DNA of 64,000 nucleotides from an uncultured Verrucomicrobiota bacterium (GTDB lineage: Bacteria > Auribacterota > JABMQX01). This document shows, one piece after another, positions 1 to 25,472 of the stretch. Numbering within the stretch: the first letter of the stretch is position 1; each line of letters begins with the position of its first letter. A program made the translations under genes and the position numbers. Under the pieces are notes generated by a model. That model made no database searches and was not told the DNA's origin. It saw nothing but the letters and a program-made list of their open reading frames with translations. The DNA lies in NCBI GenBank assembly GCA_964482435.1, contig CAYZXL010000017.1:10932-74931 (forward strand). The letters are read 5' to 3'.

Positions 1-3000
1 CAATGCACGGCGACCAGGACCGCAGATGGAAGTTGCCATTCGGCGCATCCACAAAATGGGGGTCAAGGTGAATATTCCCGTCGCCACCTCCGACCCAGTT
101 CTCGATGCAGGAGAAGGTGGGCACCTTGCCGTAGTATAGCTGGCCGGACTTTCCATTTCCCCAGATGATGCAGTTGCGGATTGCCCCGTATGACGAGGCC
201 AGCCCACCACCACGCCCGGCGGAGTTTCCAACGATGGCGTTGCTTTCAATTTGCCCGTCGCAATAGTACAACCCTCCGCCATCACCCTTGGCCGAGTTGC
301 CCGTGATGATGTTATTCCGAATGGTGCCATCGCAATTCCACAGGCCGGCTCCGTTCTGGGCTGAATGGCCCGCGATGGTGTTGTACTGAATCAGCCCGTG
401 GCAGTTGTTCAGCCCCGAGCCCTCGTACTGGGCCGAGTTGCGGCTGATGATGTTGTGTTCAATCGTGCCGTTGCAGTACGCCAACCCACCCCCTTGGTTC
501 CCGACGATAGTGTTGTTGGCGATTGTGCCGTCGCAAAAACCAATGCCCGCCCCTCCGAAATTGCCGGTCACAACACAGTGCTGGATGGTAGCGTTGGTGT
601 GGTCGCTCCATGTGCCGCCGCGAATCCCTGCACCCAACCCGTCTAACCCGTATGGGTCAATTCTTCCGCTTCGAATAGTGAACCCGGCGAGGACGCATGT
701 CTCGTTCTCTCCGCCGGAGAAAGTCACCACCGGGCCTCTTTTCCCGCCGTCAATGATAGTGGCGGCAACGACGGAAGGGTTGAGAGGGTCGGTGCTGCGG
801 ACCGTGATGTTCTTGCCGTTGAAGTTGACGTTTTCGACGTAAACGCCCATGGCGACAATCACAGTCTGGCCGGGGGAGGTAGCATTGATTCCCTCCTGGA
901 TCGTCTTGAACGCGGAATTCCAGGACTTACCGTTGCCAGAGATCGACACCGACGATCTGACATACCAGGTGGGAGGCGGCGCTGCCGGGCTGGATCCCCG
1001 ACGATATTCCTCGATGTTCGAGACCCCGTCGCTGTCACGGTCCCCATTCGGCTTTTGAGTAAGGTCACCGAAGAACTCGTTCTCCCAGTCGTCGGGGAGA
1101 CCATCCGCATCGCGATCCAGTGACCTGCAAGTCGCTTCCGGCGTGTTGCCATACGCCCCCATGTCAACCCGCCCCCCATTCGGCTCAGGCTCCTGGGAAA
1201 AATCCCAAGTTGGGTCGCCCGCATCTATGCAAGGAGACCAGCTTTTCAGGTGAAAGTCGCCGTTGGCGGGGTCAGCAAGGTAGGGAAAGTAAGAGATGTT
1301 CCCCTCGCCCGAGCCATCCAATGACTCAACGCAAGAGTACCTGGGGGTTGACGACTCATAGAGTTGCCAGGGACCCTCGTTCCCCCAGATGATGCAGTTG
1401 ACGATTGGGCCATGCTGCAGGGCGGCATCAGCGCCGGCGTCTCCCGCCGAATTGCCGTAGATCGTGTTATTCCACAAGGCACCTCTCCCACTGTACACCC
1501 CGCCGCCCTGGTAGCCGCCGTTGTTCTCCGTGATAGCGTTCCCTCGGATGGCGCCATCGCACTCGGCGACTCCTCCGCCATAGCTCGCCGAGTTGCCGGT
1601 GATGACGCTGTTCTCGATGGTGGCGTGTGTGCCGTTACCAAAAATGCCGCCGCCGTAGTTGGCTTTTCCGTTCCGAATGGTAAAGCCGGAAAGGACGCAG
1701 ACCCGGTCTTCTGAACCGAGGAAGGTGACGACGGAACCGGCTTTGCTTCCGTCAATGATGGTGGCGGCGACAACGGTCGCGTCGAGGGGGTCGGTGCTTT
1801 GGAGGATGATGTTCCTGCCCTTCAATTTGAGGTTTTCGACGTAGGTGCCCTGGGCGACAATGACGACATCGCCTTCGAAGGCGGCGTTGATTCCCTCCTG
1901 AATCGCTTTGAAGGCGGTTTCCCAGGACTTCCCGTCGCCAGAGCTTGGCAGTGCTGCGTTCACATACCACGTGGGCGGCGAAGCCGTCGGGTTGACCCCC
2001 CAACGATATTCCTCGATGTTTGGCATTCCATCGGCGTCGGCGTCGCCATTCGCCTCCTGGGCGAGGTCGCTGAAAAACTCGCTCTCCCAGTCGTCGGGAA
2101 GACCGTCGGAGTCATTGTCGGGGGATTTTGATGTCGCCTCCGGCGTGTTGCCATACACCCCCAGGTCCACTCGGCCTCCATTCGGCTCGGGTTCCCGAGA
2201 GAAATCGGAAGCCGGGTCACCCGCGTCTATGCAAGGAGACCAGCTCTTGAGATGATAGTCCCCGTTCCCAGGGTCAACAAAGTGGGGATAGTAAGAAATG
2301 TTCCCGTCGCGATCGAAACTCCCGCCTTTGATACAGCAATAAGTCGGAGGGTCGCACTCATGGAGGTCCACGGCGCCTTCGTTCCCCCAGATAATGCAGT
2401 TCCGGATTGTCCCCGTGCAGGAATCAAGGGTGCCGCTGACGCTCGTTTTTGTCAGGTTTCCCACGATGGTGTTGTTCTCGATCGTCGCTGAGCAATTGCA
2501 GACCGCCCCGCCGAATCCCGCTGAGTTACCCACTATTACGTTATTTTGAATCACGCCGTGGCAGCGGCCCAGCCCTCCGCCATAACTCGAGGACCTCTCC
2601 ACCCCTGAATTTCCTCTAATCGTGTTTCTGCGGATGGCCCCGTCGCAGTACGCGATGCCTGCCCCGTTATACTGCGCCTGGTTGTCGGCGATGATGTTGT
2701 TCTCGACCGTTGCGCGGGACCCTCCGCCGTGAATGCCTCCGCCGTCCTGAGCTTTTCCGTTCCGAATCGTGAAGCCGGAGAGGGTGCACGTCTCCTCCTC
2801 GAGTCCGAGGAAAGTGACTACGGAACCGGCCTGGTTGCCGTCAATGATGGTGGCGGCGACGACAGCAGGGTCAAGAGGGTCGGTGCTGCGAAGCGTGATG
2901 TTCTTGCCGTAGAAATGGACGTTTTCGACGTATGTGCCCTCGGCGACAAAGACCGTGTCGCCATGGGAGGCGGCGTTGATGCCCTCCTGGATGGTTTTGA

Positions 3001-5515
3001 ACGCGGTCTCCCAGGACTTCCCGTCGCCGGAGGTGGGCACTGCCGCATTCACGTACCATGTCGGACACAGCGCCGTCGGATTGAGTCCGCGACGGTATTC
3101 TTCTGAGTTCGGGATGCCATCCGCGTCCGGGTCGTGGCCCCCACCTTGGACAAGACCGCCGAAGAACTCCCTCTCCCAGTCGTCGGGAAGTCCGTCACCG
3201 TCGCTATCGGGGGACTTGGAAGTCGCTTCCGGCGTGTTGCCGTAAGTCCCCATGTCCACTCGCCCTCCGGTTGGTTCGGGCTCTTGAGAAAAGTCCGAAG
3301 TAGGGTCCCCCGCATCTATGCAAGGAGACCAGCTTTTGAGGTGAAAGTCGCCGTTTTGCGGGTCAGCAACGTGCGGAAAGACTGAGATGTTCCCCTCCCC
3401 CTCGCCGGGCCATGCCTCGATGCAGGAGTACGCAGGGACGGAGCAATTGTCGAGCTGTAGCGAGTGCTCGTTCCCCCAGATGATGCAGTTGACGATTGTG
3501 CACTTGCAGTCAGCGAGCGCCGCGCCCGCGAACTCAGCCGAGTTGCCGTAAATCGTGTTGTTGCGCAACGCGCCCCTCCCACGGTACACGCCGCCGCCGT
3601 TTTCTTTCGCAGCATTCTTCCATATTGTGTTGTTCTCGACGTCGGCGCTGACAAAACCGGAGCCAATTCCTCCGCCGTTGCGTGCAGAGTTCCAGGCGAT
3701 CTCGTTGCAGCGAATTGTGCCAGCGCACTGATACAGGCCGCCGGCATCGTTGCCGGCCGAGTTGCGGACAATGGCGTTCTTCTCGATTATCCCGCCGCAG
3801 TGATACAGCCCCCCACCGGAGTATTGGGCCACGTTCGCAGAAATCGTGTTGTTCCGGATGAGTCCATCGCAGCAGGCAATCCCGCCGCCGTAGCCCGCTG
3901 AGTTCGCAGTAACCACGTTATTCTCGATGGTCGCGTACGTGTCAAGGCTCTGGTTTCCACCGCAGATGCCGCCACCGAACCAGCTTTTCCCATTGCGAAT
4001 AGTGAAGCCGGAGAGAACGCAGGTCCGATTTTCTGCGCCGGAGAAGATGACCGCGGAATCGGCCTGGTTGCCGTCAATGATGGTGGCTGCCACGACAGCA
4101 GGGTCAGAGGGGTCAGTGCTGCGGAGGACGATGCTCTTCCCGTTGGACTTGACATTCTCGACGTAGATTCCCTCACCGACGACGACCGTGTCGGCATCTG
4201 AAGAAGCGTCAATCCCCTCCTGGATGGTCTTGAATGCGGTGTTCCACGACTTGCCATCGCCGGAGCTTAAGACTGCCCCATTGACGTACCACGTCACCGA
4301 CGCGACGAGGGGGTTCAAGCCCCGATAGTATTCCTCGATGTTTGAGATTCCGTCCGCGTCCGTGTCGCCGCTTGCGTCCTGGATGAGGCTGCCAATGAAT
4401 TCGGTCTCCCAATCGTCCGGAAGCCCATCTGCGTCAACATCGGGCGACCTGGAAGTCGCTTCCGCCGTGTTGCCATAAGCCCCCATGTCCACCCGCCGTC
4501 CATTCGGCTCGGGCTCCTGTGAAAAATCGGAGGTGGGGTCGCCGGCATCTACGCAAGGAGACCACCTCTTGAGGTGAAAGTCGCCCTTGGCAGGATTCGT
4601 AAAGTGCGGAAACAAGGAGATGTTCCCCTCGCCTTTCCCGGTCCATGATTCAATGCAGCAATACGTGAGGATCGGACAATCAAAGAATTGGCCGGAACCT
4701 TCGTTTCCCCAGATGATGCAGTTGACGATTGCGCCGGGATGCCAGGCCACGGCGGATCCCGATGACCCAGCGAGGTTGCCGGAAATCGTGTTGTTGCGGA
4801 GCACGCCTTCCCCACCGTGCAGGCCCCCGCCTTCCCGGTTGGCCGTGTTCGCCCATATCGTGTTGTTTTCTATGGTCCCGGCGCAGTAATTCAGTCCACC
4901 GCCGTTGTCGCTCGTAGAGTTCCCCGTTATGGCGTTTCTGCGAATGGTGCCGTTGCAATAGGATAGTCCGCCGCCTCCGTAAGCCGAGTTCGCCGAAATC
5001 GTATTGTTGCGGATGACGCCATGGCAAAAGGCGAGGCCACCGCCGTAGTCCGCCGAGTTGCCCGTGATGACGTTGTTCTCAATGGTCGCACGCGTCCCGT
5101 AATCCTTGCTCCCCCCCAGAATGCCCCCGCCATAAGAGGCCTTCCCGTTGCGGATCGTGAACCCGGCAAGAACGAAAGCCTCCTTTTCCGCCCCGGAGAA
5201 TGTGACGACGGGACCCGTCTGATTTCCGTCGAGGATTGTCGCGGCGACGACAGCCGGGGCGAGCGGGTCAGTGCTGCGGAGGGCGATGTTGCTTCCCCTG
5301 AGATAAACGTTTTCGACATAGATGCCCTGGGCGACGATGACCGTATCGCCGTCGGAAGCGACGTTGATGGCATGCTGGATCGTTTTGAGGGAGGTCGCCC
5401 AGCTCTTCCCATCGCCGGATACCTCGACCGCGCCGTCCACATACCAGGTTGTTGACGCTCCTGGGCGGACGGAGAAAAGAGTGAGGCAAACCCACGCCAA
5501 AACGACTCTCGCCAT
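1..5515 (-). CDS. Giant secreted modular protein (paralog A): >=5 tandem modules of DUF1565-like domain + parallel beta-helix + SPCIDAGDP/EPEPNGGR cap, joined by TSP3-like Ca-binding linkers. The 3' end runs off the window start
   Basis: Hand translation of the minus frame from the ATG at 5515-5513 gives MARVVLAWVCLTLFSVRPGASTTWYVDGAVEVSGDGKSWATSLKTIQ (signal peptide + DUF1565-like). The frame was checked at 4280 (SVTWYVNGAV) and 1965 (TWYV). No minus-frame-1 stop-bounded ORF is listed for 1-5515, consistent with one frame open to the window edge. TWYV module starts recur at about 5445, 4280, 3055, 1965 and 965. Confidence 0.75.
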   Translation of the reverse strand, partial: MARVVLAWVCLTLFSVRPGASTTWYVDGAVEVSGDGKSWATSLKTIQHAINVASDGDTVIVAQGIYVENVYLRGSNIALRSTDPLAPAVVAATILDGNQTGPVVTFSGAEKEAFVLAGFTIRNGKASYGGGILGGSKDYGTRATIENNVITGNSADYGGGLAFCHGVIRNNTISANSAYGGGGLSYCNGTIRRNAITGNSTSDNGGGLNYCAGTIENNTIWANTANREGGGLHGGEGVLRNNTISGNLAGSSGSAVAWHPGAIVNCIIWGNEGSGQFFDCPILTYCCIESWTGKGEGNISLFPHFTNPAKGDFHLKRWSPCVDAGDPTSDFSQEPEPNGRRVDMGAYGNTAEATSRSPDVDADGLPDDWETEFIGSLIQDASGDTDADGISNIEEYYRGLNPLVASVTWYVNGAVLSSGDGKSWNTAFKTIQEGIDASSDADTVVVGEGIYVENVKSNGKSIVLRSTDPSDPAVVAATIIDGNQADSAVIFSGAENRTCVLSGFTIRNGKSWFGGGICGGNQSLDTYATIENNVVTANSAGYGGGIACCDGLIRNNTISANVAQYSGGGLYHCGGIIEKNAIVRNSAGNDAGGLYQCAGTIRCNEIAWNSARNGGGIGSGFVSADVENNTIWKNAAKENGGGVYRGRGALRNNTIYGNSAEFAGAALADCKCTIVNCIIWGNEHSLQLDNCSVPAYSCIEAWPGEGEGNISVFPHVADPQNGDFHLKSWSPCIDAGDPTSDFSQEPEPTGGRVDMGTYGNTPEATSKSPDSDGDGLPDDWEREFFGGLVQGGGHDPDADGIPNSEEYRRGLNPTALCPTWYVNAAVPTSGDGKSWETAFKTIQEGINAASHGDTVFVAEGTYVENVHFYGKNITLRSTDPLDPAVVAATIIDGNQAGSVVTFLGLEEETCTLSGFTIRNGKAQDGGGIHGGGSRATVENNIIADNQAQYNGAGIAYCDGAIRRNTIRGNSGVERSSSYGGGLGRCHGVIQNNVIVGNSAGFGGAVCNCSATIENNTIVGNLTKTSVSGTLDSCTGTIRNCIIWGNEGAVDLHECDPPTYCCIKGGSFDRDGNISYYPHFVDPGNGDYHLKSWSPCIDAGDPASDFSREPEPNGGRVDLGVYGNTPEATSKSPDNDSDGLPDDWESEFFSDLAQEANGDADADGMPNIEEYRWGVNPTASPPTWYVNAALPSSGDGKSWETAFKAIQEGINAAFEGDVVIVAQGTYVENLKLKGRNIILQSTDPLDATVVAATIIDGSKAGSVVTFLGSEDRVCVLSGFTIRNGKANYGGGIFGNGTHATIENSVITGNSASYGGGVAECDGAIRGNAITENNGGYQGGGVYSGRGALWNNTIYGNSAGDAGADAALQHGPIVNCIIWGNEGPWQLYESSTPRYSCVESLDGSGEGNISYFPYLADPANGDFHLKSWSPCIDAGDPTWDFSQEPEPNGGRVDMGAYGNTPEATCRSLDRDADGLPDDWENEFFGDLTQKPNGDRDSDGVSNIEEYRRGSSPAAPPPTWYVRSSVSISGNGKSWNSAFKTIQEGINATSPGQTVIVAMGVYVENVNFNGKNITVRSTDPLNPSVVAATIIDGGKRGPVVTFSGGENETCVLAGFTIRSGRIDPYGLDGLGAGIRGGTWSDHTNATIQHCVVTGNFGGAGIGFCDGTIANNTIVGNQGGGLAYCNGTIEHNIISRNSAQYEGSGLNNCHGLIQYNTIAGHSAQNGAGLWNCDGTIRNNIITGNSAKGDGGGLYYCDGQIESNAIVGNSAGRGGGLASSYGAIRNCIIWGNGKSGQLYYGKVPTFSCIENWVGGGDGNIHLDPHFVDAPNGNFHLRSWSPCI
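1..5515. repeat. Intragenic tandem repeat array, period about 1.0-1.2 kb (>=5 copies), with >80% nucleotide identity in the cap-encoding stretches
   Basis: The ~45-bp cap-encoding stretch 'gcatctatgcaaggagaccagcttttgaggtgaaagtcgccgtt' recurs with few changes at about 1221, 2224, 3311 and 4546; paralogous copies are at 6346, 7498, 9838 and 12438. Confidence 0.8.
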
Positions 5516-5590
5516 TTCTGTTCCTCCCATGCGCTGCAAGTGCACCTGCATTGACAACTCCACCCCAACATTCAAGCGAACAGGTCGCCT

Positions 5591-8500
5591 CTACTTACGC
5601 ACACTGACCCTGTAGTAGCGACTCTCGAGCTGAACAGACTCCCAGTCGAAGACCGAATGGGTGGAGATGAACGGTCCGGGCGTTACGCTTCCGCCGACGG
5701 GAAACCACAGTTTGAGGTCGGAGCTAACATAGCACTGGTACGTGCGGCTGGGAACGACTGTCCAGCGGAGAGCCGTGCCGAACGGCGTGCAAACGATTTC
5801 GATGATCCGAAAAAGCGATTGTGGGTCCAGAGGGTCGGTGCCTGCGGCCACTTCCTGTCCGTCGTTTTTCCCATCGTTATCAGTATCGGGCTTCAAGGGG
5901 TCGCTGTGATGAGTGTTAACCTCGGCGCCATCGCTCAAATCGTCGTCGTCCGAGTCGCTATTGTTTGGATTCGTCAAGCACAGGTACTCCTGAAGATTGG
6001 TCAGGCCGTCCATGTCCGCATCCTCTGCGGCGTTGTCCGTTAACGGGTCGAGCGCATTGTCCACCTCCCATGCGTCGGGCATCTGGTCGCCATCTGTATC
6101 TTGATTTTCAGGGTTGGTTGAGAAGAGGTACTCAGCGCGGTTTGGCAATCGGTCACCGTCCGGGTCCTCAGTCCCCCCGTGGGCAAGGCTGCCGAATATC
6201 ACAAGCTCCCAATCGTCCGGCAGAAGGTCTTCGTCAGAATCCTCCGAGGCTGAAGTCGCCTCCGAAGTGTTGCCATACATCCCGATGTCAACCCTTCCTC
6301 CGTTGGGTTCTGGTTCTTGCGAGAAATCGGAGGAAGGGTCCCCTGCGTCTATGCAGGGAGACCAATTCTTGAGATGATAATCGTCATTTGCCGCGTCCAC
6401 GAAGTAAGGAAAATACGGGATGTTGCCTTCTCCATCGCCGGTCCATCGTTCAATGCAGCAATAGGACACAGTTACCCCACCAAAAAGCAGGTTGTTGCCT
6501 TTATTCCCCCAGATGATGCAGTTGTGGACCGTTCCGGAGCAGTCATAGAGGGCGGCTCCCGGTCCGTCGGCAACGTTTGCGAGAATGGTGTTGTTTTCAA
6601 TCGTTCCGTTGCACCCGTGCATCCCCCCGCCCTCGTCGGCGGAGTTTGCGATTATGGCGTTGTTCTGGATGATTCCGCCGCACCAGTACAAGCCCCCGCC
6701 CTGAGATTGGGATAAGTTACCGGAGATGATGTTGCTACGGACGGTGCCACTACAGAAGGCGAGCTCGCCGCCGTGCTGCTCTGCGGAGTTGGCTTTGATT
6801 GTGTTGCGCTCCACAAGGCCATCGCAGAAAAACAGCCCGCCGCCTTCGGAAGTGGCCGAGTTCCCGACGATCACGTTGCTCCGAATAGTCGCGTGATTTC
6901 CATCGCCTGATGTGCGGCCGCAGATTCCACCGCCGAGCATGGCCCTGCCGTTTCGTATCGTGAAACCGGACAGGACGCAATTCTCGCCCTCCGTCCCTTC
7001 AAAGGTCACGACAGGTCCGGCGGCATCCCCGTCAATGATGGTGTTGGCGACGATGCCGGAGTCAAAAGGCTCAGTGCTTCTGAGAACGATGTTCTTGCCC
7101 TTGAAATGAATGTTCTCAAAGTAAATCCCCCGAGCGACGAGGACTGTATCGGGATAATACGCCAGGTCTATCGCTTCCTGGATTGTCCTGAAAGCTTTCT
7201 CCCACGACGTGCCGTCGCCAGAGGCCGGCCGAGACCTGTCAACATACCACGACACTCTTATCGGCCTCGTGCCGGCAAGGTATTCGTCGGCGTTTGAGAT
7301 TCCGTCGCTGTCGGCATCTCCCTCCGCAACCTGAGCCAGGTCGCCAAAAAAGTGCATCTCCCAGTCATCGGGAAGAGAATCTCCGTCGGTATCCGGCGAT
7401 TTGCTTGTCGCCTCCGGCGTGTTACCGTAAGCTCCCATGTCAATTCGTCCGCCGTTTGGCTCCGGTTCCTTTGAGAAGTCCGAGGCGCGATCTCCTGCGT
7501 CAATGCATGGCGACCAGCTTCTGAGGTGGTAGTCCCCCCCTCCCGGGTCAACAAAGTGGGGGAAAAGGGATATGTTCCCTGTGCCGCCTCCCGTCCAGTT
7601 TTCGATACATGAATAACTTGGAGTGCGACTCGCAACGAACTCAGGCCCCTCTGATGCCGTGTTTCCCCAGATGATGCAGTTGCGGATGTCGCACCCCGGG
7701 AGAGAAATATCGCAGTCGGACAGCCCACCGCCAATATCAGCGGAATTGCCGACGATTGTGTTGTTCACAACCTTGCCGAAGCAAGAAGCCAGCCCGCCGC
7801 CTCGAGGGGCAGAATTCTCGTAAACGACGTTGTTTCGAACCGTCCCCCTGCACCATCCCAATCCACCGCCGTTCGACCTGGCGGAATTTCGCGCGATGAC
7901 ATTCCCCTCAACAATGCCGTCGCAATAGTGAAGACCGCCCCCGTCAACGACGCTTGAGTTGTTCGTGATGATATTGTTACGGATGGTTCCCTGACAACTG
8001 TCCAGGCCCCCGCCAGACGCTTCAGCCATGAGCCGCGCACGGGTAGCGTTGCCGGAGATGACGTTGTTCTGAATCGTGCCGTCGCAATCGTATAGGCCGC
8101 CTCCGTTCTGACCAGACGAATTCTCCTTGATGACGTTGTTTTGAATGATGCCGTTGCACAAAAACAGTCCGCCTCCTTCGTACTCCGCATAATTTCCGAC
8201 TATCACGTTATTCCGAATCGTGACACGAGCCTGGTAGTCCCATGTGCCACCGCAGATTCCCGCTCCGCGAATAGCCCTCCCGTTTCGGATGGTGAAGCCT
8301 GAGAGGACGCAGGATTCCTTCTCCGTTCCTGCAAATGTCACGACGGATGATGCCCCCTGGCCGTCAATGATGGTTTTGCTGACTATGGCCGAATTCGAAG
8401 AATCGGTACTCCGAAGAACAATGTTCTTCCCCTTGAACGCCACGTTCTCGCGGTATGTCCCCTGAGCAACGACTACCGTATCGCCGGAGACCGCCGCATC

Positions 8501-8668
8501 AATCCCTTGCTGGATGGTCTTGAATGCCGTCGCCCATGACTTCCCGTCGTGGGACCCCAGCGCCGAACAGTCCACGTACCATTCAGCGGATGGCGCATCG
8601 GCGCAGACCGACCAGAACAACAAAGGCAGTAATTCGATGATAAGCGCTCTCTCGACAGCCCCGATCAT
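5591..8668 (-). CDS. Secreted modular beta-helix/TSP3-repeat protein (paralog B, 2 modules), with a C-terminal TSP3-like array and a conserved ~75-aa C-terminal domain
   Basis: 1025-aa ORF. N-terminus is hydrophobic, then WYVDCSALGSHDGKSWATAFKTIQQGIDAAVSGDTVVVAQGTYRENV. A second WYVDRSRPASGDGTSWEKAFRTIQEAIDLA module follows. Rung repeats NN.I..NSA..GGGL.C.GTI. Cap CIIWGN...SPCIDAGD...EPEPNGGR.DMGAYGNT. TSP3-like DTDGDQMPDAWE/DSDDDDLSDGAE. C-terminus SLFRIIEI..RWTVVPSRTYQCYVSSDL..RYYRVSVRK. Confidence 0.8.
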   Translation of the reverse strand: MIGAVERALIIELLPLLFWSVCADAPSAEWYVDCSALGSHDGKSWATAFKTIQQGIDAAVSGDTVVVAQGTYRENVAFKGKNIVLRSTDSSNSAIVSKTIIDGQGASSVVTFAGTEKESCVLSGFTIRNGRAIRGAGICGGTWDYQARVTIRNNVIVGNYAEYEGGGLFLCNGIIQNNVIKENSSGQNGGGLYDCDGTIQNNVISGNATRARLMAEASGGGLDSCQGTIRNNIITNNSSVVDGGGLHYCDGIVEGNVIARNSARSNGGGLGWCRGTVRNNVVYENSAPRGGGLASCFGKVVNNTIVGNSADIGGGLSDCDISLPGCDIRNCIIWGNTASEGPEFVASRTPSYSCIENWTGGGTGNISLFPHFVDPGGGDYHLRSWSPCIDAGDRASDFSKEPEPNGGRIDMGAYGNTPEATSKSPDTDGDSLPDDWEMHFFGDLAQVAEGDADSDGISNADEYLAGTRPIRVSWYVDRSRPASGDGTSWEKAFRTIQEAIDLAYYPDTVLVARGIYFENIHFKGKNIVLRSTEPFDSGIVANTIIDGDAAGPVVTFEGTEGENCVLSGFTIRNGRAMLGGGICGRTSGDGNHATIRSNVIVGNSATSEGGGLFFCDGLVERNTIKANSAEQHGGELAFCSGTVRSNIISGNLSQSQGGGLYWCGGIIQNNAIIANSADEGGGMHGCNGTIENNTILANVADGPGAALYDCSGTVHNCIIWGNKGNNLLFGGVTVSYCCIERWTGDGEGNIPYFPYFVDAANDDYHLKNWSPCIDAGDPSSDFSQEPEPNGGRVDIGMYGNTSEATSASEDSDEDLLPDDWELVIFGSLAHGGTEDPDGDRLPNRAEYLFSTNPENQDTDGDQMPDAWEVDNALDPLTDNAAEDADMDGLTNLQEYLCLTNPNNSDSDDDDLSDGAEVNTHHSDPLKPDTDNDGKNDGQEVAAGTDPLDPQSLFRIIEIVCTPFGTALRWTVVPSRTYQCYVSSDLKLWFPVGGSVTPGPFISTHSVFDWESVQLESRYYRVSVRK

Positions 8669-8733: not shown

Positions 8734-11700
8734 TCAACGAACAACTTCGACTTTGTAGAACCGAGACCCGAGGCCCGGGGTTTCCCAATCGAAAAGGGAT
8801 AGCGACGAATCGAACGAAAGCAGCGTGATTGCTCCACCAATCGGCTGCCAATTGGCGAGGTCTGTGCTGAAATAGCACTGGTAAGTTTTCCCGTAAGCGG
8901 CTGTCCAGCGAATCACCGTGCCTTGCGGCATGGAAATGATTTCCATAATCCAGAAAAGAGAACTCGCGTCACGCGGGTCGGTGCGCGCGAATACCTCCTC
9001 GCCATCGCTCTTCCCGTCACCGTCCGTATCGGGCTTGAGAGGGTCTGTGCCGTGGGCATAAACCTCCTTGCCATCGCTCAGGCCGTCGGCGTCCGTGTCT
9101 TCGTTTTTAGGGTCTGTGGCACGCTGATACTCCTGGAAGTTGGTCAGACCATCCCCGTCCGCATCGCCGCGCGCGTCGTTTACAGGAGCATTCAGCCCGT
9201 TGGCAACCTCCCAGCCGTCCGGCATCTTATCCCCGTCGGTATCCGCGGAAGTCGGCGATGTGCCGTACGTATCAACCTCCATCCCGTCGTTCAGACCATC
9301 GGCATCGGTGTCGCTATTTTGAGGGTCCGCGAGGTGAAGAAACTCACCCGCGTTGGGCAAGCCGTCGTTGTCCGGGTCCTCGCCGCCGTCGTTTCTCAGC
9401 GGATCAAGCTTATGCTCGACCTCCCATGCATCAGGCATCTGGTCGCCATCTGTGTCAACGGAGCAAGGGTTTGTCCCATACGTAATGGCCTCCTCCCCGT
9501 CCGTCAACCCATCCCCATCACTATCGGTCTCCATCGGGTCGGAATGGTACGTATTGACTTCCTCGCCATCGCTCAGCCCGTCGCCGTCCGTGTCCGGGTT
9601 GTTCGGGTCGGCTGAGAACAATAGCTCGTCGGCATTTGGCAGACCATCAGCGTCCGGGTCATCTTCCGGCCCCATCCACAGCATGGCAAAATGAGTTATC
9701 TCCCAGAAGTCCGGGAGACCGTCCACGTCCGCGTCCACATGCTCATCAGCTCCAATATCCAGTCGAGAACCGAACGGCCTGTACTCCCCGTCGAGGTCAA
9801 CGCGCGGAAGGTCGGGCACATCGTTCGTTCCTGCGTCAATGCACGGCGAGCCCGACCGGAGGTGGTAGTCTCCCCTCGACGGATTCACAAAGAGCGGGTC
9901 GTGCGCTATGTTTCCTTCGCCGAGATACCCGCCCTGAACATCGCAGCAGGTCAAGAGCAATTCCGCTTGCTCCGCGCGAACCTCGTCGGGGGTGTCCCCC
10001 CACAGGATGCAATTTGTCAGCGCCGGTGAGCTCTCAGAACAGAAAATCCCACCGCCCGAAGACGTCGCCATGTTGCCAACGACAGTGCAGTTGGTCACCG
10101 TGGCATTGCTCTGGCCCGAGCAGAAAATGCCGCCACCCCTCTGTTGAGCCTGGTTTGCCGCGATCATGCAATTCGTAATCCTCGGACTGCTCTGGTTGAG
10201 GCATTGAACACCAGCTCCGTCCTTCGCCGAGTTGCTAAGAAGGATGCAGTTGATGACCCCGGGATTGCTCTGCTCATCGCAGGAAATGCCCCCGCCATAG
10301 TCCGCGTTGTTGCCGGTGATGGCGCAATTGATGATCGTCGGACTGCTTTTAGCCTTGCAGCAAATGCCACCGCCGTAGTCCGCTGAGCCGGACCGGACGG
10401 TGAAGCCATCAAGCACAGATGCGGGCGTTTCGCCGCCGTGAAAATGGAAACCGCGGCCAAGGCGTTCGCAATCTATCACGGTATTCCCCGCCCCTTCCGC
10501 GGATTTCACCGTGATTTCTTTACCGCCGAAATCAATGCCGCGGTTCCCCGGGCCGGAATATGTCCCCGGTGCCACGAGTACAGTGTAGTCCCAGCCGGTT
10601 ATCGCCGCGTCAATCGCAGCCTGGAAGGTCTTCTTAGGGCCATGAATCGCCTCGGGGAAGGCGGCCAGGCCATCGTAGCGGTCGTCACCGAATGTGCCAT
10701 TGACGTAGTAGGTCAACTCGGGGTTATCCGGGTGAAAGACGTTGGTTGCGTGAAATATTTCGTAGGCATCGCTCCATCCGTCACCATCAGCGTCGGCGTC
10801 AAGGGCCGGATTGGTGCCGTGCTGATACTCCTGGAGCGTCGTAAGTCCATCTCCGTCGGGGTCGTCCTGCGGACCGGAGACCGACACGGAACCGAAGTAT
10901 TTCCGTTCCCACCAATCGGGCAACGAGTCAAAGTCAGTGTCAACATACTCATCGGCCCCAATATCCACCTGAGTGCCATAGGGCCGGACCTCGCCTTCAA
11001 AATCCGCACCGGGAGCATTTGTGGCGGTCCCCGCGTCAATGCAGGGCGAGCCCGGGCGCAGGTGGAAGCCCTCGTCAAAAAGCGGGGCAGCGTCTATGTT
11101 CCCGTCACCGGGCCATCCGCCCTGGACATCACAGTAAGCGATTTGCGGGGCGACCCCCGGCGCCGAGACTTGCCATGGCGAATTCCCCCACAGGACTGTG
11201 TTCACTATGAATATGCCCGCCTGTGGGTGGCACCAGATGCCGCCAGTCGGGTTGTCTGCAATGGTGCAGTTTGTGACAACGATGCTCGCCTGTTCTTTGA
11301 GGCAAATTGCCCCACCTCCTCCAGCACTGGAATTCCCGGCAATAACACAGTTCGTGATCTGGAGCAAGCCACTGCCCTCGTACAGGATAGCCCCGGCATC
11401 GTTACCCGAGTTGTCGGTAATGACGCAATCGGCCACCGTGCATGATGGGACCGCCATGCGCACTCCGCCAAAGCCAGAATTTCTGGTAATGACGTTGTGG
11501 GCTATTGTCAGCGCATCCGTACCCCCCGTTATTCCCCCGCCGCGATTGTTGCTGACCACGTTACCGACGATGGTGGCACCGCAGGGACCGAAGCACAGGA
11601 TTCCGAGTTCGCGGTTGGCGGTTATGGTGTTGCCAGAAATGTTGGATTCTGTGTTGGACCAAATCCCGGTCGAATTTGCCGTGATGAGGTTATCCGCAAT

Positions 11701-13287
11701 CTCGGGAGAAGTCCCGTAATAGGCCCAGACGCCGTAGGAGTTCTCCGTGAAGGTGTTCTCCTTGATCACGGGAGAGCACTCGAGGCCGCTGCACTGGATG
11801 GCTCTGTCGTTGCCGCGAAAAAGGTTGGAAACAATAAGAGGGGAACAGCGGTCTTCGCAGACCACTCCGCATCTACCCCCGGCGACGGTGAACCCCGTTA
11901 GGACGCTGTCCGGGCCTTCGCCGCTATCGAACGTGACGGTGCTCAGGGACCCTTCCGCATCGATAATCGTTGACGCGACAATCCCCGGATCCTGCGGGTC
12001 CTTGGAGCGCAGAGTAATTGCCTTTCCCCTGAAGTTTATACACTCGCGGTAATGGCCGGGAGCAACAATGACGACGTCCTTGTCCCACGCCGCGTCAATC
12101 CCTTCCTGGATGTGTCTGAACGCTGTCTCCCAGGAGAGGCCGTCCGGCTCTTTGGTCGCTGCGCAGTCAACGTAGATGAACGAAGGTGTTGTGGGGTTGG
12201 AGCCTCTTCGGAGCTCTTCAATGTTCGTTCGAGAGTCGCCGTCCGGGTTACCGTCCGCAGCTTGAGACAGGTCGTGGAACCATCGCATTTCCCAGTCGTC
12301 CGGCAAGCCGTCCGCATCTACGTCGAGCGAAGCAGGCACCGCATTAGGGGTGTTGCCATAAGCACCCATGTCTATTCGCCCACCGTTAGGCTCAGGCTCA
12401 CGCGAGAAATCAGACGCCGGGTCCCCGGCGTCAACGCACGGCGACCAGCTTTGAAGACGGTAATCGTTCTTATCGGGCGCGACGAAATGAGGCCAAGCCC
12501 ATGTATTCCCGGCCAATGGATCGCCCCCGCGAAGACACGAGTAAACGGCCGAGCAGGAGTACAAATCGCTGCCATTGCCCACGAATATGCAGTTGCTGAT
12601 CGTCGCCGAACACATGTAATCGCAAAAAATGGCAAATCCCACGTTATCAACGATTGTGTTGTTCACAATCTTCAGCGACGACTGGTTGTAGTAGATGCCG
12701 CCCATGTTATTGCTGGAGGAGTTCCGGGCAATGACGTTGTTGGCAACAACAGCTTGCGAGTTGTGCGTGTAGATACCACCCCCTATCCACGCCTCGTTGG
12801 ACACGATGACGTTGTTTATGATCGTGGGCGACGAATTATCGCAGTAGATGCCGCCTCCCCAGTCGGACTTCCCATTGGTTATGGTGAAACCCCTGAGGAC
12901 CGCGCTGGGTCCCTCTCCGGAGGAAAACGTTACGACTGGCCCCAGTTCCTGTCCGTCTATGACTGTCGCTGCGACAACAGCGAAATCGTCAGGGTCTTCC
13001 GACCGAACAGTGATTTCCTTTCCCCTGAAGCTAATGTTCTCCTCATAGACCCCCGCCCGGACAATAACCGTGTCCCCGCCACTGGCGGAATCAATCGCTT
13101 GCTGGATGGTCTTGAAGGCCATCTCCCGCGTCGTTCCATCGCCCGATTCCGGAACCGAGGCGTCAACATACCACTCGGCCGCTATCAAGGCGCGTGGAAG
13201 GAAACCGAGAGAAAGAGCGGATGCTGCTAAAAGAAAGGCTTTGGCAATCATTGTCCCCTCTGCTTTTCCGACCACCCCCGAAATCAT
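8734..13287 (-). CDS. Secreted modular beta-helix/TSP3-repeat protein (paralog C, 3 modules), with a long TSP3-like array and the conserved C-terminal domain
   Basis: 1517-aa ORF. Signal-like N-terminus (MIAKAFLLAASALSLGFLPRALIAAEWYVD). Three DUF1565-like starts (WYVDASV, FIYVDCAAT, YYVNGTF). Beta-helix rungs. About 10 TSP3-like repeats (DTDGDGLSDGEE, DTDADGLNDGME, DADGDGLTNFQE). C-terminus SLFWIMEI..RWTAAYGKTYQCYFSTDL..RFYKVEVVR. Gaps of 65-75 bp to the neighbouring paralogs suggest co-transcription. Confidence 0.8.
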   Translation of the reverse strand: MISGVVGKAEGTMIAKAFLLAASALSLGFLPRALIAAEWYVDASVPESGDGTTREMAFKTIQQAIDSASGGDTVIVRAGVYEENISFRGKEITVRSEDPDDFAVVAATVIDGQELGPVVTFSSGEGPSAVLRGFTITNGKSDWGGGIYCDNSSPTIINNVIVSNEAWIGGGIYTHNSQAVVANNVIARNSSSNNMGGIYYNQSSLKIVNNTIVDNVGFAIFCDYMCSATISNCIFVGNGSDLYSCSAVYSCLRGGDPLAGNTWAWPHFVAPDKNDYRLQSWSPCVDAGDPASDFSREPEPNGGRIDMGAYGNTPNAVPASLDVDADGLPDDWEMRWFHDLSQAADGNPDGDSRTNIEELRRGSNPTTPSFIYVDCAATKEPDGLSWETAFRHIQEGIDAAWDKDVVIVAPGHYRECINFRGKAITLRSKDPQDPGIVASTIIDAEGSLSTVTFDSGEGPDSVLTGFTVAGGRCGVVCEDRCSPLIVSNLFRGNDRAIQCSGLECSPVIKENTFTENSYGVWAYYGTSPEIADNLITANSTGIWSNTESNISGNTITANRELGILCFGPCGATIVGNVVSNNRGGGITGGTDALTIAHNVITRNSGFGGVRMAVPSCTVADCVITDNSGNDAGAILYEGSGLLQITNCVIAGNSSAGGGGAICLKEQASIVVTNCTIADNPTGGIWCHPQAGIFIVNTVLWGNSPWQVSAPGVAPQIAYCDVQGGWPGDGNIDAAPLFDEGFHLRPGSPCIDAGTATNAPGADFEGEVRPYGTQVDIGADEYVDTDFDSLPDWWERKYFGSVSVSGPQDDPDGDGLTTLQEYQHGTNPALDADADGDGWSDAYEIFHATNVFHPDNPELTYYVNGTFGDDRYDGLAAFPEAIHGPKKTFQAAIDAAITGWDYTVLVAPGTYSGPGNRGIDFGGKEITVKSAEGAGNTVIDCERLGRGFHFHGGETPASVLDGFTVRSGSADYGGGICCKAKSSPTIINCAITGNNADYGGGISCDEQSNPGVINCILLSNSAKDGAGVQCLNQSSPRITNCMIAANQAQQRGGGIFCSGQSNATVTNCTVVGNMATSSGGGIFCSESSPALTNCILWGDTPDEVRAEQAELLLTCCDVQGGYLGEGNIAHDPLFVNPSRGDYHLRSGSPCIDAGTNDVPDLPRVDLDGEYRPFGSRLDIGADEHVDADVDGLPDFWEITHFAMLWMGPEDDPDADGLPNADELLFSADPNNPDTDGDGLSDGEEVNTYHSDPMETDSDGDGLTDGEEAITYGTNPCSVDTDGDQMPDAWEVEHKLDPLRNDGGEDPDNDGLPNAGEFLHLADPQNSDTDADGLNDGMEVDTYGTSPTSADTDGDKMPDGWEVANGLNAPVNDARGDADGDGLTNFQEYQRATDPKNEDTDADGLSDGKEVYAHGTDPLKPDTDGDGKSDGEEVFARTDPRDASSLFWIMEIISMPQGTVIRWTAAYGKTYQCYFSTDLANWQPIGGAITLLSFDSSLSLFDWETPGLGSRFYKVEVVR

Positions 13288-23040: not shown

Positions 23041-23730
23041 GTGGCGCTTTGCATGGTTGATGAATGCAGCTATTCCTCCGGAAGATACAGAAGACGCTGG
23101 CGTGTTGTGATAGTGACTACGGTTCCTTTATCTTTCATCTTCTTCAGCGGTCTGTTCCAGTTTCTGCGGGAGCGCGGATATGAGGTACACGGGGTATGCT
23201 CTCCGGGCAAAATGATAAAAGAAGTGGCGTCCTCCGAGGGGATTGTGATGCATCCGGTGTCCATGTCACGTTCCATTACCCCGCTGAGTGACCTTTTGAC
23301 GCTGGGGCGGCTGGTGAAGCTGTTCATCTATCTGCGACCGGACATCGTTCACTCGCATACGCCGAAGGGTGGGCTGCTTGGCACACTCAGCGCCTGTATC
23401 GCGGGGGTTCCAGTCCGGTGCTATACGCTGCATGGGTTGCCCATGATGACTGGAGGGGCGGTGAAGCGGCAACTCCTCAAGTGGAGTGAAACCCTGGCGT
23501 GTGCCTGCGCGCACCGCGTGTTTTGCGTGAGCGAGTCGATCAGAAAGGTGAGCATCCGACTCGGGATCTGCCCGAAGGACAAAATTCAGGTTTTCTGCAA
23601 TGGGAGCAGCAATGGTGTGGACGGACGCACGTTTCAGCGCACTGGGCTCGTACAGAAGTGGGCGCGCGAATTGCGCGCCAACATAAACATCCCCAAGGAC
23701 GCGCTCGTCATGGGCTTTGTCGGGCGACTA
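23041..23730 (+). pseudogene. GT4 glycosyltransferase, N-terminal part, interrupted by an IS630-family insertion after ...GFVGR
   Basis: GT4 N-domain (PDIVHSHTPKGGLLG...) ends at GFVGR followed by the IS-encoded LLTIV*. Joining 23730 to 24829 restores GFVGRLVRDKGIWEL, the canonical GT4 GRLVREKG motif, in frame. Confidence 0.8.
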
Positions 23731-23764
23731 TTGACGATTGTGTAGCGAACGGAAGGGGCCTCTG

Positions 23765-24268
23765 TCATGGTGGGAGCCCCGCCAGGTCAAAGAAGGAACG
23801 GAGAAGCCCGGACTGGCCCCGGGTGCTGCTCATGGAGGACCGGACCAGCAAGTGCAGCTCTTCCAGGTCGTCGGGAGCAAGGTTCGGCAGGTCGGCGTAC
23901 TTGGTATGGTTCCATACCTGCTCCGTAGGGTTGAGCTGGGGGGCGTAAGCGGGCAACTCCTCCAGATGGATTTTGTCACCGTGACGCTGCAGGTAGTTCC
24001 CAACAACGGCTGCCCTGTGGACATTCCCTCGGTCGAGGATCACGACGATCTTGCGCCGCAGACTCCTTCGGAGCGACCGCAGGAATCTCACGACGTCCTC
24101 TCCGCGGATGTTGCGATTCTGAATCCGCCAGTACAGGCCAAGACGACGCCTGCGAGGCGCCAGGCTAATGGCGCTGATGACCGACAAGCGGTCGTGGCGC
24201 TCCCACTGACGCTGGATAGGTGTTTTACCTTTCGGGGCCCAAGTTCGCCGCACTGTGGGCTGCAACAT
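23765..24268 (-). CDS. IS630-family transposase OrfB (DDE catalytic part), in the +1 frame relative to OrfA
   Basis: VVILDRGNVHR...LEELPAYAPQLNPTEQVWNHTKY (DDE with the PQLNPiE motif). The frame is open upstream to ...SIVFLDESGFML immediately after the A7 tract. Confidence 0.85.
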   Translation of the reverse strand: MLQPTVRRTWAPKGKTPIQRQWERHDRLSVISAISLAPRRRRLGLYWRIQNRNIRGEDVVRFLRSLRRSLRRKIVVILDRGNVHRAAVVGNYLQRHGDKIHLEELPAYAPQLNPTEQVWNHTKYADLPNLAPDDLEELHLLVRSSMSSTRGQSGLLRSFFDLAGLPP

Positions 24269-24296
24269 GAAGCCGCTCTCGTCGAGAAAGACAATG

Positions 24297-24782
24297 CTAC
24301 GTCCTTCTCCTCGCGCGTTTTTTTATATGGGGCCACCCCTCTTTGCGCCAGCGTTCAATCTCCTTCTCATTCCTTTCCCTCGCGCGCCGCTCGGGCTTTT
24401 GACAGCTCCACCCACAGGAATGCAGCAACCTCCACACGTGCGCCGGGTGGTACCGCACGCCAAAATGCCGCTCGATCACCTCGGCCACTCGGGGTAGGGT
24501 CCACAGATCGTTGTGATACCCGTGGGCTTTTGGACCTTGCTTCAGCAGCTCAAGCAACTGCTCCTTCTGCTCGGCCGACAGACGCGGGCGCGGCCCCGGA
24601 TGCGGTTTCGCCGCCAACCCCTCCACCCCGCTTTTCTCTACCACCTCCTTCCAGCGGGTCACTGAAGACGGCGAACACCCAATCAGCCGGGCCACTTCTC
24701 CACCGCGAAGACCTTTCTGGAGAAGCGATACCGCCCATCGTCGCCGAGCCTCCAACACCTCGGCACTCCCTTTGGGTCTCAT
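24297..24782 (-). CDS. IS630-family transposase OrfA (N-terminal HTH DNA-binding part)
   Basis: ...VARLIGCSPSSVTRWKEVVEKSG...GPRPRLSAEQKEQLLELL... is typical of the IS630/Tc1 N-terminal HTH. Ends KKRARRRT* within an A7 tract. Confidence 0.85.
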   Translation of the reverse strand: MRPKGSAEVLEARRRWAVSLLQKGLRGGEVARLIGCSPSSVTRWKEVVEKSGVEGLAAKPHPGPRPRLSAEQKEQLLELLKQGPKAHGYHNDLWTLPRVAEVIERHFGVRYHPAHVWRLLHSCGWSCQKPERRARERNEKEIERWRKEGWPHIKKRARRRT

Positions 24783-24830
24783 ACAAGCGACAATTATACA
24801 AGGATTTCATTGGCTGTACAAGCGTCAATA

Positions 24831-25341
24831 GTTCGAGACAAAGGCATTTGGGAACTGGTTTCGTCGTGGAGAATCCTCCGAAGGGAATTCCAGAACCTTC
24901 ATCTGTTGGTTATCGGTTCAGCCGAAGCGCAGGACCCGCTCTCTCCAGAGATCCTCGACCTCCTGAGGAAGGATGAGAGAATCCATCGTGTGGAGTGGGT
25001 GCCGAAGGAGAAGATGCCGGGATACTACGCGGCCATGAACATCGTCGTTCTTCCGTCCTACAGGGAGGGATTCCCAAACGTGCTCCTTGAGGCAGCGGCG
25101 ATGGCTTTGCCGGTTGCCGCAACCCGAATTCCGGGGTGCTTGGACGCCGTAGTTGACGGCTTGACCGGGATTCTTGTCCCCCCGAGAGATGCTGCCGGGC
25201 TGGCGCATGCAGTCCACCGGCTGCTTGAAGACCCCGGACTACGCTGGCGGATGGGAGAAGCCGGGCGGCAACGTGCCTTGCAGGATTTCCGTCCGGAGCC
25301 GATATGGCTGGCGTTGTGCCAGGAGTACTGGAGTCTCCTGC
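24831..25341 (+). pseudogene. GT4 glycosyltransferase, C-terminal part (continuation of 23041-23730 across the IS). It reads in frame into the downstream PglC-like gene
   Basis: VRDKGIWELV...LHLLVIGSAE...EGFPNVLLEAAAMALPVAATRIPG...QEYWSLL. No stop codon before the PglC-like domain. The listed TTG start at 24810 lies inside the IS. Confidence 0.75.
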
Positions 25342-25472
25342 GCCGCAAGTGTTCCCGCGCTTCCCTTCGCAGACTACTGGATCGCGAGTATCAGGTTGCT
25401 CGCTCGTGGGACGTGCCGTGGACTCGGTTTTCTTCTTTGGGCAAAGGGCTGCAAGCAAGGCCTGGGCGGGAG

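Follow-up and report, generated by a model that had tools for sequence, protein, structure and literature searches.

Two large neighbouring proteins encoded in the 64,000-nucleotide stretch of DNA analysed here (the window) end in closely similar segments of about 75 residues, and the question that this locus raises is whether the shared tail is a C-terminal device for sorting or anchoring, as a sequence-only reading had proposed, or a domain of a more ordinary kind. The protein of gene C runs from a Sec-type signal peptide through three beta-helix/NosD plus choice-of-anchor Q modules and a TSP3 array to the tail, and that of gene B from a signal-peptide-like N-terminus through two beta-helix plus choice-of-anchor Q modules and TSP3 repeats to its own copy (Table 1). 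The repeats are recognised by the Pfam model TSP3_bac (PF18884, cutoff 25 bits) at 3.6e-36 and 123 bits over six stretches in gene C and at 2.5e-09 and 37.2 bits in gene B; the last DxDxDG motif lies at residue 1420 in the former and 928 in the latter, with the tail directly after it. A match to the Amuc_1099 family was set aside, being confined to the TSP3 repeats and not including the tail, and papers on that family proved uninformative. The choice-of-anchor Q domain (NCBIfam NF041518, cutoff 25 bits) scores 93.1 bits over three stretches in gene C and 37.3 bits over two in gene B, and is a feature of the passenger, not of the tail; the "choice-of-anchor" label is used for domains found with alternative C-terminal anchors.

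Table 1. Features of the three genes in the window, with the predicted strands of the gene C tail.
Feature	Position in window	Strand	Extent and description	Basis
Gene C	8734-13287	-	1517 aa; stop codon 8734-8736	ORF call and translation
Gene B	5591-8668	-	1025 aa; stop codon 5591-5593	ORF call and translation
Gene A	1-5521	-	at least 1840 aa, repeated beta-helix modules; 3' part beyond window edge	
Gene C tail domain	8737-8976	-	aa 1438-1517, last 80 codons	
Gene B tail domain	5594-5833	-	aa 946-1025, last 80 codons	
Gene C TSP3 array (DxDxDG, Ca-binding type)	8977-9735	-	aa 1185-1437, directly upstream of tail	
Gene B short TSP3 region	5834-6022	-	aa 883-945, directly upstream of tail	
Gene C tail, predicted strands			tail residues 10-16, 19-25, 31-37, 44-51, 58-63, 73-79	AlphaFold2

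Gene A is a paralog of gene B (45–52% identity); since its 5' end lies near 5520 and its reading frame runs past the left edge, its C-terminus falls outside the window. The collections searched yielded no sequence that reaches the end of gene A: an exact look-up of the gene B sequence returned two short Logan contigs only, the nearest homologues of gene A reach at most 54% local identity, and the best metagenome match has 39% identity.

The B and C tails align without a gap, with 46 of 87 positions identical (53%, E 2e-28). The whole proteins are only 33% identical, which makes the tail the best-conserved part of the pair. The sequence-only reading had described a conserved segment immediately after the last TSP3 repeat with the pattern SLF.I.EI...GT..RWT...TYQCY.S.DL..W.P.GG...S.FDWE...SR.Y.V.V, and both the segment and the pattern are confirmed, the latter being reproduced by the invariant columns, which number 40 of 80. 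The position that it gave in gene C, 8734-8975, captures the right segment but sits one base off the codon register, the stop codon occupying 8734-8736 and the tail codons 8737-8976. The first six or so residues (P.D..S) still belong to the last TSP3 repeat, of which they form the end, and the two tails close with ...SRFYKVEVVR and ...SRYYRVSVRK. On inspection, both sequences lack a PEP or LPXTG motif, a hydrophobic stretch or helix and a basic tail; a lipobox and a conserved cleavage motif are likewise absent.

The tail belongs to a sizeable family. A profile search with the two tails, of the kind that the same reading had suggested, was run over 1.84 billion proteins and returned 144 cluster representatives at E<=1e-3, 12 of them at E<=1e-10, which puts the similarity far beyond chance. 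A word-indexed homologue search, on the other hand, found no match for the 81-residue tail alone and only four proteins for a 52-sequence profile, because such an index is too coarse for a domain this short and divergent; the profile search, which uses no index, succeeded. The segment had been called unrecognised, and so it proves: no Pfam or NCBIfam model matches either window tail, and among 52 family members no domain in these libraries recognises the tail, with weak F5_F8_type_C and DUF3999 matches in 10 of the 52. Searches of the literature for the domain, its motif or a sorting domain of Verrucomicrobia turned up no relevant work. We conclude that the tail is a real and previously uncatalogued domain of about 75 residues (75–80 aa). 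Its named carriers are Verrucomicrobiota, with Roseibacillus and aquatic Akkermansiaceae as cultivable examples, and the closest metagenome-assembled genome (bin.94) holds nine tail-bearing reading frames over three contigs. One weak tblastn match to the tail within the window (45055-45183, plus strand) is antisense to a GFO_IDH_MocA gene and was rejected as noise.

The position of the domain is strikingly constant, and in this respect it behaves as expected of the C-terminal sorting or anchoring device that its placement had suggested at the outset. All 24 tail HMM matches in 39 fetched loci and the window end within six residues of the stop codon. Of the 120 homologues that match gene A best, 95 have the tail and 93 have it at the very end, which bears indirectly on the condition that the sequence-only reading had named as refuting it, absence of the tail from the true C-terminus of gene A and from homologues. 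At least one near-full-length copy is present in 124 of the 144 representatives, and in 95 of these 124 the protein ends zero to six residues after the last aligned one; the typical distance from the xYRV strand to the end of the protein is three to six residues. Tandem arrays of two to five copies occur in 35 of the 124 (about 28%), and a few clear exceptions (P0089, P0022, P0026) carry internal or N-terminal copies.

The proteins so terminated are diverse. Passengers comprise TSP3 (19/29), Beta_helix (11), LTD (5) and CotH (3), with NHL, SGL, CBM_4_9, Chlam_PMP, DUF3160, TIG and PKD domains as well; architectures include a GDSL esterase followed by a BNR sialidase, TSP3 and the tail, and a beta-helix followed by Bact_surface_Ig-like and the tail. 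Sec signal peptides are present on tail proteins with complete N-termini. The same tail is thus found on unrelated secreted proteins (beta-helix, LTD, CotH, NHL, sialidase/GDSL and CBM), a point that the sequence-only reading had put up for checking, while the proposal that it is specific to one protein family fails, given its fusion to many unrelated passengers and its tandem arrays. Two of the three tail subtypes, in homologues of gene A, have no TSP3 repeats and follow choice-of-anchor Q directly, which indicates that the tail is more than a cap for TSP3 arrays.

What stands in the same slot in related proteins is also informative. In beta-helix homologues from other metagenomic lineages, six loci carry a terminal T9SS type A domain (TIGR04183) at 42–51 bits against a cutoff of 23, and Pfam Por_Secre_tail (PF18962) also matches these ends. 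Judged from such model matches, a known sorting domain replaces the tail in these homologues. The C-termini of archaeal and Desulfobacterales TSP3 homologues appear by eye to consist of a hydrophobic helix followed by a basic tail.

Hundreds of different exported proteins of Verrucomicrobia-like bacteria end in this domain, at the site where their relatives in other phyla have a recognised secretion tag, and this makes it a good candidate, although an unproven one, for a new module of surface sorting or anchoring. Our best reading, which we hold tentatively and at somewhat less than even chances, is that the tail is a Verrucomicrobiota-type module for C-terminal surface retention or sorting. 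On this account the tail would fold autonomously and mark, in Verrucomicrobiota-like bacteria, the extreme C-terminus of extracellular or surface proteins that consist of several domains and are exported by Sec. After export a component of the envelope would bind it, perhaps a protein or translocon of the outer membrane, a scaffold made of this very domain, or a glycan on the cell surface, and through this binding the beta-helix enzyme or adhesin would stay with the cell. The Ca-binding TSP3 array, where present, may then serve as a stalk between anchor and passenger. The tail would be one more "choice of anchor", in the slot taken by the T9SS C-terminal domain (CTD) in relatives from other phyla. 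The terminal position, the range of passengers, the export signals and the several copies per genome are matters of observation; what we infer is that the tail is bound or anchored, which partner does this, and whether the tail stays on the protein or is cleaved off.

Several observations count against an anchor. Tandem copies, unusual in a secretion signal, are typical of Ig-like modules that have a structural or binding role; the argument from T9SS CTDs in the slot of the tail is one of position and not of homology; the nearest neighbours in sequence and fold are generic FN3 and discoidin/CBM32 modules; internal and N-terminal exceptions exist; and the flanking genes offer no partner, nor the tail a helix, lipobox or cleavage motif. 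The flanks of tail genes differ from locus to locus and share no secretion-related or otherwise conserved gene; the co-occurrence with a secretion gene set that the sequence-only reading had suggested looking for is not seen in the flanking genes of the loci examined. A link with the adjoining polysaccharide-synthesis locus as a conserved feature was considered and rejected, since the orthologues in bin.94 adjoin an integrase and UxuA and other loci differ again.

The main rival builds on these observations: the tail would be an ordinary module, FN3-like or derived from discoidin, that serves as a structural element or spacer or binds glycans and has no part in sorting or cell attachment, for example a distal "knob", or a CBM-like domain that binds the substrate polysaccharide or stabilises the end of the protein. 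We regard this as a serious competitor, quite plausible although short of an even chance. The predicted fold speaks for it. AlphaFold2 models the tail as a six-stranded sandwich with a mean pLDDT of 92.2, as the earlier description of a beta-rich segment had implied, and the model is best read as a predicted FN3-like sandwich with strands A, B, C, C', E and F and apparently no G strand; these proteins stop three to six residues past strand F, which would leave no place for the G strand of FN3. The best PDB profile match is 3mpc, a bacterial Fn3-like protein (E 0.0036, marginal), with the discoidin/CBM32 domains of a glucanase next in line (E 0.01), and Foldseek returns FN3, Ig or CUB sandwiches, FN3 dominating the lists at TM 0.45–0.64. 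The Ig/FN3-like sandwich that had been offered as an alternative is thus borne out as a prediction. The tail also shares with FN3 the signature of W in strand B, Y in strand C and Y in strand F, as well as the occurrence in tandem arrays. The two- to five-copy arrays and rare internal copies fit this rival well, as do the many carbohydrate-active passengers (beta-helix/NosD, sialidase, CBM_4_9).

Yet the known-fold matches are all marginal, with E>=0.0036 in the sequence comparisons and E>=0.011 in the structural ones; Foldseek places no solved structure significantly near the model, and the Pfam fn3 models match neither the window tails nor the family members. The resemblance to discoidin has similar limits. 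The discoidin motif V.L.W...Y.IQVS.D...W ... RYVR parallels tail strands B to F, and hhalign pairs the two families with a probability of 94.8% over 54 columns (columns 53–106 of 126), a score inflated by the pre-selection of the discoidin sequences with the tail profile itself; PF00754 (F5_F8_type_C) matches 2 of the 52 tail members weakly, at E>=0.014. A discoidin (CBM32) domain is a full jelly-roll of about 130–150 residues, whereas the tail at 75–80 is about half of that and lacks the N-terminal half. The sugar site of discoidin domains is formed by N-terminal strands and loops that the tail is without. Generic FN3 and CBM modules sit anywhere in a protein, whereas the tail is terminal in about 95–100% of cases, three to six residues from the end; strict C-terminal placement is a trait of the tail and not of FN3.

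A second rival takes the analogy with type IX secretion at face value and holds that the tail is a true secretion signal, recognised by an undescribed outer-membrane translocon and cleaved by a dedicated peptidase after transport, in the manner of the T9SS CTD. The likeness is considerable, in that the T9SS type A CTD is also an Ig-like sandwich of 70–80 residues at the extreme C-terminus of diverse Sec-exported passengers, in many copies per genome, and the tail is indeed a predicted small beta sandwich, terminal on Sec-exported cargo; homologous passengers, moreover, have a T9SS CTD where the tail would stand. But the CTD has seven strands where six are predicted for the tail, its NPF/LLK-type motifs are missing from the tail, its carriers are Bacteroidota while those of the tail are Verrucomicrobiota-like, and the two have no homology in sequence or profile, although the CTD fills the tail's slot in beta-helix/choice-of-anchor Q homologues. 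Tandem copies, the lack (by eye) of a conserved linker or cleavage motif over the three subtypes, and the lack of candidate machinery in any neighbourhood examined argue against a cleaved signal. To our knowledge the phylum Verrucomicrobiota does not have a T9SS, and we know of no translocon-plus-peptidase system of this type in the PVC superphylum. This explanation seems to us improbable.

That the tail is a divergent form of a known signal (T9SS type A or B CTD, PEP-CTERM, LPXTG or another short CTERM), which it resembles in position and size alone, is effectively refuted and, as the sequence-only reading had anticipated, hardly credible: no Pfam or NCBIfam sorting model matches the two window tails or the 52 members (TIGR04183 and PF18962 give nothing at E<=1 and E<=0.1, respectively, for these two sets, while the domains of the homologous loci, as positive controls, score 42–51 bits), hhalign of the 52 tails against eight T9SS CTDs yields a probability of 0.9% over eight aligned columns and hence no homology, the PEP, LPXTG, hydrophobic-helix and basic-tail features are lacking, and the named carriers are Verrucomicrobiota.

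Other systems supply analogies of architecture. Thrombospondins have type 3 repeats followed by a C-terminal, lectin-like sandwich of about 230 residues; here, too, DxDxDG Ca-binding repeats run into a terminal beta sandwich, but that sandwich has no detected similarity to the tail, and two tail subtypes have no TSP3. Dockerins, SLH domains and cell-wall-binding repeats are, like the tail, terminal, sometimes tandem and attached to diverse secreted enzymes, but their folds and sequences are unrelated to it, and we know of no cohesin-like partner for the tail. In some homologues the position of the tail seems by eye to be taken by dockerin-like EF-hand pairs, which neither Pfam nor NCBIfam confirmed.

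If surface retention or sorting is the role of the tail, it could go further still and be the cargo tag of an undescribed pathway by which Verrucomicrobiota and related PVC bacteria sort proteins or attach them to the surface, with its own outer-membrane receptor, translocon or attachment enzyme. We think this unlikely; if true, the tag would correspond in function to the T9SS CTD or to PEP-CTERM/exosortase and would define the surface proteome of these organisms, made up of beta-helix enzymes, sialidases and CotH/LTD proteins. Even as a mere binding module the tail merits a curated family of its own, since it sits unannotated on many large "hypothetical" proteins. Verrucomicrobiota play a major part in breaking down complex polysaccharides, in the oceans as well as in lakes, soils and guts, and we know of essentially no route that would take their large secreted enzymes through the outer membrane and keep them on it. 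The tail offers a concrete handle on the surface display of these enzymes: it makes a candidate surface proteome searchable by HMM and may be used as bait for the cognate machinery.

The C-terminal tails of the giant secreted beta-helix proteins encoded by genes B and C align without gaps at 46 of 87 identical residues (E 2e-28), with 40 of 80 columns invariant, and because the whole proteins share only 33% identity, the tail is the most conserved segment of the pair. It starts directly after the last TSP3 motif, its first residues (P.D..S) being the end of that repeat. Such a shared, conserved segment had been described in the sequence-only reading, whose residue pattern the 40 invariant columns reproduce and whose placement was right save for a one-base slip in codon register. 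The 64-kb window contains no further copy; at 45055-45183 a weak tblastn match lies antisense to a GFO_IDH_MocA gene and is not a tail copy.

Genes A, B and C are head-to-tail paralogs whose products all open with a signal-peptide-like stretch and then W[YF]VD, and their repeated modules match Beta_helix/NosD/DUF1565 (Pfam) and the 'choice-of-anchor Q' domain (NCBIfam). After these modules, B and C carry bacterial TSP3 repeats (DxDxDG), with two motifs in B and nine in C. Gene A, 45-52% identical to gene B, comprises at least four ~400-aa beta-helix/choice-of-anchor Q modules in tandem, all of which start with TWYVN..SGDGKSW.TAFKTIQEGI. Its C-terminus lies beyond the left window edge, its database relatives reach 3200 aa, and neither an identical contig nor an identical protein turned up in contig look-up, metagenome scan or homologue search. 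Gene B has its closest relative (69% identity) in the MAG 'bacterium C20_metabat.bin.94' (bin.94) and its second closest in an uncultured Verrucomicrobiota MAG, so the window most probably stems from a Verrucomicrobiota-like (PVC) organism. A match to the NCBIfam model 'Amuc_1099 family pilus-like system protein' is confined to the TSP3 repeats (gene B aa 862-906; 42.5 bits, cutoff 50), and likewise at the C-terminus of the homologous locus L022. This points to repeats of this type in Amuc_1099 itself, a protein of the Akkermansia MUL2 pilus-like locus.

Features of the window
Feature	Position	Strand	Remarks
Gene A	1-5521	-	start near 5520; cut by left window edge; at least 1840 aa visible
Gene B	5591-8668	-	1025 aa
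Tail of gene B	5594-5833	-	last 80 codons; gap-free alignment with C tail
Gene C	8734-13287	-	1517 aa
Tail of gene C	8737-8976	-	last 80 codons; gap-free alignment with B tail
Polysaccharide (EPS or O-antigen-like) biosynthesis locus	15758-42026	+	26 kb; adjoins genes A-C
Glycosyltransferase ORFs	23041-26171	+	234-aa ORF with GT4 N-terminal domain only
DegT/DnrJ fragment, then Fe-alcohol dehydrogenase fragment	26920-27962	+	two abutting ORFs
901-aa ORF	60132-62837	+	no Pfam match
380-aa ORF	62834-63976	-	no Pfam match

A profile built from the two window tails only, scored against 1.84 billion representatives, has 144 protein matches at E<=1e-3, of which 12 reach E<=1e-10. The 52-sequence alignment built from these matches has the consensus P.D..S.FRI......P.G....W..VPG..Y.V..S.DL..W...G....A.....S..D........RFYRV.V, in which Y32 (tail numbering) is invariant and P1, S6, W24, W43 and Y74 are at least 90% conserved. 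The tail had been thought specific to this protein family, a view that did not hold up: the N-terminal parts of the 29 carriers with 300 aa or more are unrelated, bearing TSP3_bac (19), Beta_helix (11), LTD (5), CotH (3) and, more rarely, NHL, SGL, CBM_4_9, Chlam_PMP, DUF3160, TIG and PKD. From related loci come an Akkermansiaceae carrier with GDSL esterase, BNR sialidase, TSP3 and tail, and another with beta-helix, Bact_surface_Ig-like domain and tail. Wherever the N-terminus is complete, carriers have a Sec signal peptide. Organism names, where given, are Verrucomicrobiae, Roseibacillus, Akkermansiaceae, 'Verrucomicrobiota bacterium' or unclassified 'bacterium' MAGs.

All 24 HMM matches in stop-to-stop ORFs (39 fetched loci and the window) end no more than 6 residues short of the stop codon; bin.94 alone holds nine tail ORFs on three contigs. 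Among the best 120 database homologues of gene A, the HMM matches 95, at the very end in 93, so that about four-fifths of these closest homologues end in the tail, an indirect answer to the refutation proposed earlier (absence of the tail from gene A's end and from homologues); most of the other 25 are truncated fragments, carry tails so divergent that the HMM misses them, or have dockerin-like or other ends. At least one near-full-length copy is present in 124 of the 144 representatives, and in 95 of these 124 only 0-6 residues follow the last aligned one, the usual protein end lying 3-6 residues past the xYRV strand. The non-terminal exceptions are discoidin proteins (cross-hits), tandem arrays with a weak last copy, and a few genuine internal or N-terminal copies (database proteins P0022, P0026 and P0089, the last with the domain straight after a signal peptide and one TSP3 repeat). 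Two to five tandem copies occur in 35 of the 124 (~28%); P0007 (annotated cadherin-like, in a Verrucomicrobiae MAG), P0009, P0012 and P0027 consist largely of three to five. Three subtypes are seen among the best 120 gene A homologues: the TSP3-linked form of genes B and C (SLFRI...YQCY...RYYRV.V), and two others, ...TYSIFY.DDL..WH...RFYRILENP and ...W.SRPGD.Y.IWSC.DL...KFYRIE, each directly after a choice-of-anchor Q domain. TSP3 repeats are thus common but not obligatory partners.

Neither window tail matches Pfam-A or NCBIfam at E<=1, and the 52 family members, scanned one by one, give noise or weak DUF3999 and F5_F8_type_C matches only. None of the NCBI names for the carriers ('hypothetical protein', 'lamin tail domain-containing', 'right-handed parallel beta-helix repeat-containing', 'cadherin-like', 'choice-of-anchor Q') mentions the tail, and our literature search found no description of it. 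Consistent with the earlier view of an unrecognised domain, the tail is a real, uncurated and widespread one.

AlphaFold2, given the 52-sequence alignment, models the tail (mean pLDDT 92.2, pTM 0.79) with six predicted strands at residues 10-16, 19-25, 31-37, 44-51, 58-63 and 73-79, on which W24, Y32 and Y74 occupy the strands bearing the FN3 signature W (B), Y (C) and Y (F). Profile search of the PDB gives as its best match the bacterial Fn3-like protein 3mpc, at a marginal E of 0.0036 and with an alignment from strand B through strand F; the chain of 3mpc goes on into a G strand, whereas the tail proteins end there, and we therefore infer an FN3-like fold probably lacking strand G. The model supports the beta-rich, Ig/FN3-like character anticipated from sequence. 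Foldseek retrieves only generic FN3, Ig or CUB sandwiches from the PDB (E>=0.065, TM 0.45-0.64), with E>=0.011 against BFVD. The central strands also locally resemble discoidin/CBM32 (PDB E 0.01; hhalign probability 94.8% over 54 columns, a score inflated because the discoidin set was picked from the tail profile's own matches), and a distant evolutionary link or convergence is possible. F5/8 type C (discoidin) domains in P0015, P0016, P0017, P0020, P0025, P0028, P0045 and others are also picked up by the tail profile, the common pattern being V.L.W..AY...Y.IQVS.D...W ... RYVR. The main rival to a sorting role, and almost as likely, is that the tail is just a module of FN3- or discoidin-like kind with a structural or glycan-binding function that happens to come last.

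Membership in any known sorting-signal family is rejected. In agreement with the sequence-only exclusion of PEP-CTERM, LPXTG and T9SS signals, the B and C tails have no PEP motif, LPXTG motif, hydrophobic helix or basic tail, no NCBIfam or Pfam sorting-domain model matches them or the 52 family members, and hhalign against the T9SS CTD gives a probability of 0.9%. The T9SS CTD, although not homologous, fills the same C-terminal slot: six metagenomic beta-helix homologues found with gene A (loci L042, L046, L047, L048, L050 and L051) lack the tail and instead end in T9SS type A sorting domains that match TIGR04183 at 42-51 bits (cutoff 23), and the one also scanned with Pfam matches Por_Secre_tail. 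Archaeal and Desulfobacterales TSP3 homologues end, by eye, in a hydrophobic helix and then a basic tail. In other lineages, then, localisation devices occupy the slot; in the Verrucomicrobiota-like one it is occupied by the tail. Dockerin-like D.NGDG pairs, seen by eye and recognised by neither Pfam nor NCBIfam HMMs, end L043, L045, L022, L008 and several database matches.

The polysaccharide locus encodes a Wzx-type flippase, at least six GT4 glycosyltransferases, a Wzy_C-like protein, four methyltransferases, a deacetylase, PglD-like and DegT-like proteins, a CapD-like dehydratase and a Wzz/GNVR tyrosine-kinase protein. Its GC of 0.51-0.55 over much of its length, against 0.57-0.60 in the flanks (and at 22-28 kb inside it), suggests a variable or acquired island. 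It is ruled out as a conserved neighbour of tail genes, since the orthologues in bin.94 adjoin an integrase and UxuA instead and two more tail-bearing loci have other neighbours again. BLAST of window ORFs against those of seven tail-bearing loci gave two generic enzyme matches only, and these comparisons (window, bin.94, two loci, seven-locus BLAST) yielded no candidate partner or secretion component. In L003, a bin.94 locus, a phage-type integrase gene (1841-3040, + strand) lies ~3 kb upstream of the C and B orthologues; there are hints that the beta-helix cluster occupies a mobile or variable region. Within the polysaccharide locus, a 185-aa ORF whose match to the DegT/DnrJ aminotransferase model is confined to positions 4-135 of 360 directly precedes a 162-aa ORF whose match to the Fe-alcohol dehydrogenase C-domain is confined to its C-terminal part (56-193 of 194), and the pair looks like a deletion/fusion scar or pseudogenes. 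The glycosyltransferase ORFs, among them a 412-aa ORF (23738-24976) that has no Pfam match and overlaps the next ORF, in which a Bac_transf sugar transferase is fused to a GT1 C-domain, could represent a split or rearranged glycosyltransferase, or have mis-called starts. GC peaks for the window, at 0.61-0.63, over the 901-aa and 380-aa ORFs.

The tail, a real and widespread domain, is near-absolutely C-terminal, rides on diverse exported passengers in several copies per genome, is positionally equivalent to a proven sorting domain in homologues, and is confidently predicted to be a small sandwich. It is by such properties that domains for C-terminal sorting or anchoring were identified in the past. 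The sorting or anchoring device first proposed is plausible as to position, while its function we only infer: our leading, if tentative, reading is a surface-retention or sorting module. Within that reading, the tandem arrays, a typical trait of modules that bind, seem to favour non-covalent anchoring over a secretion signal that is cleaved off. An HMM census with phylogenetic profiling could quickly make the tail a testable route to surface-protein sorting in Verrucomicrobiota.
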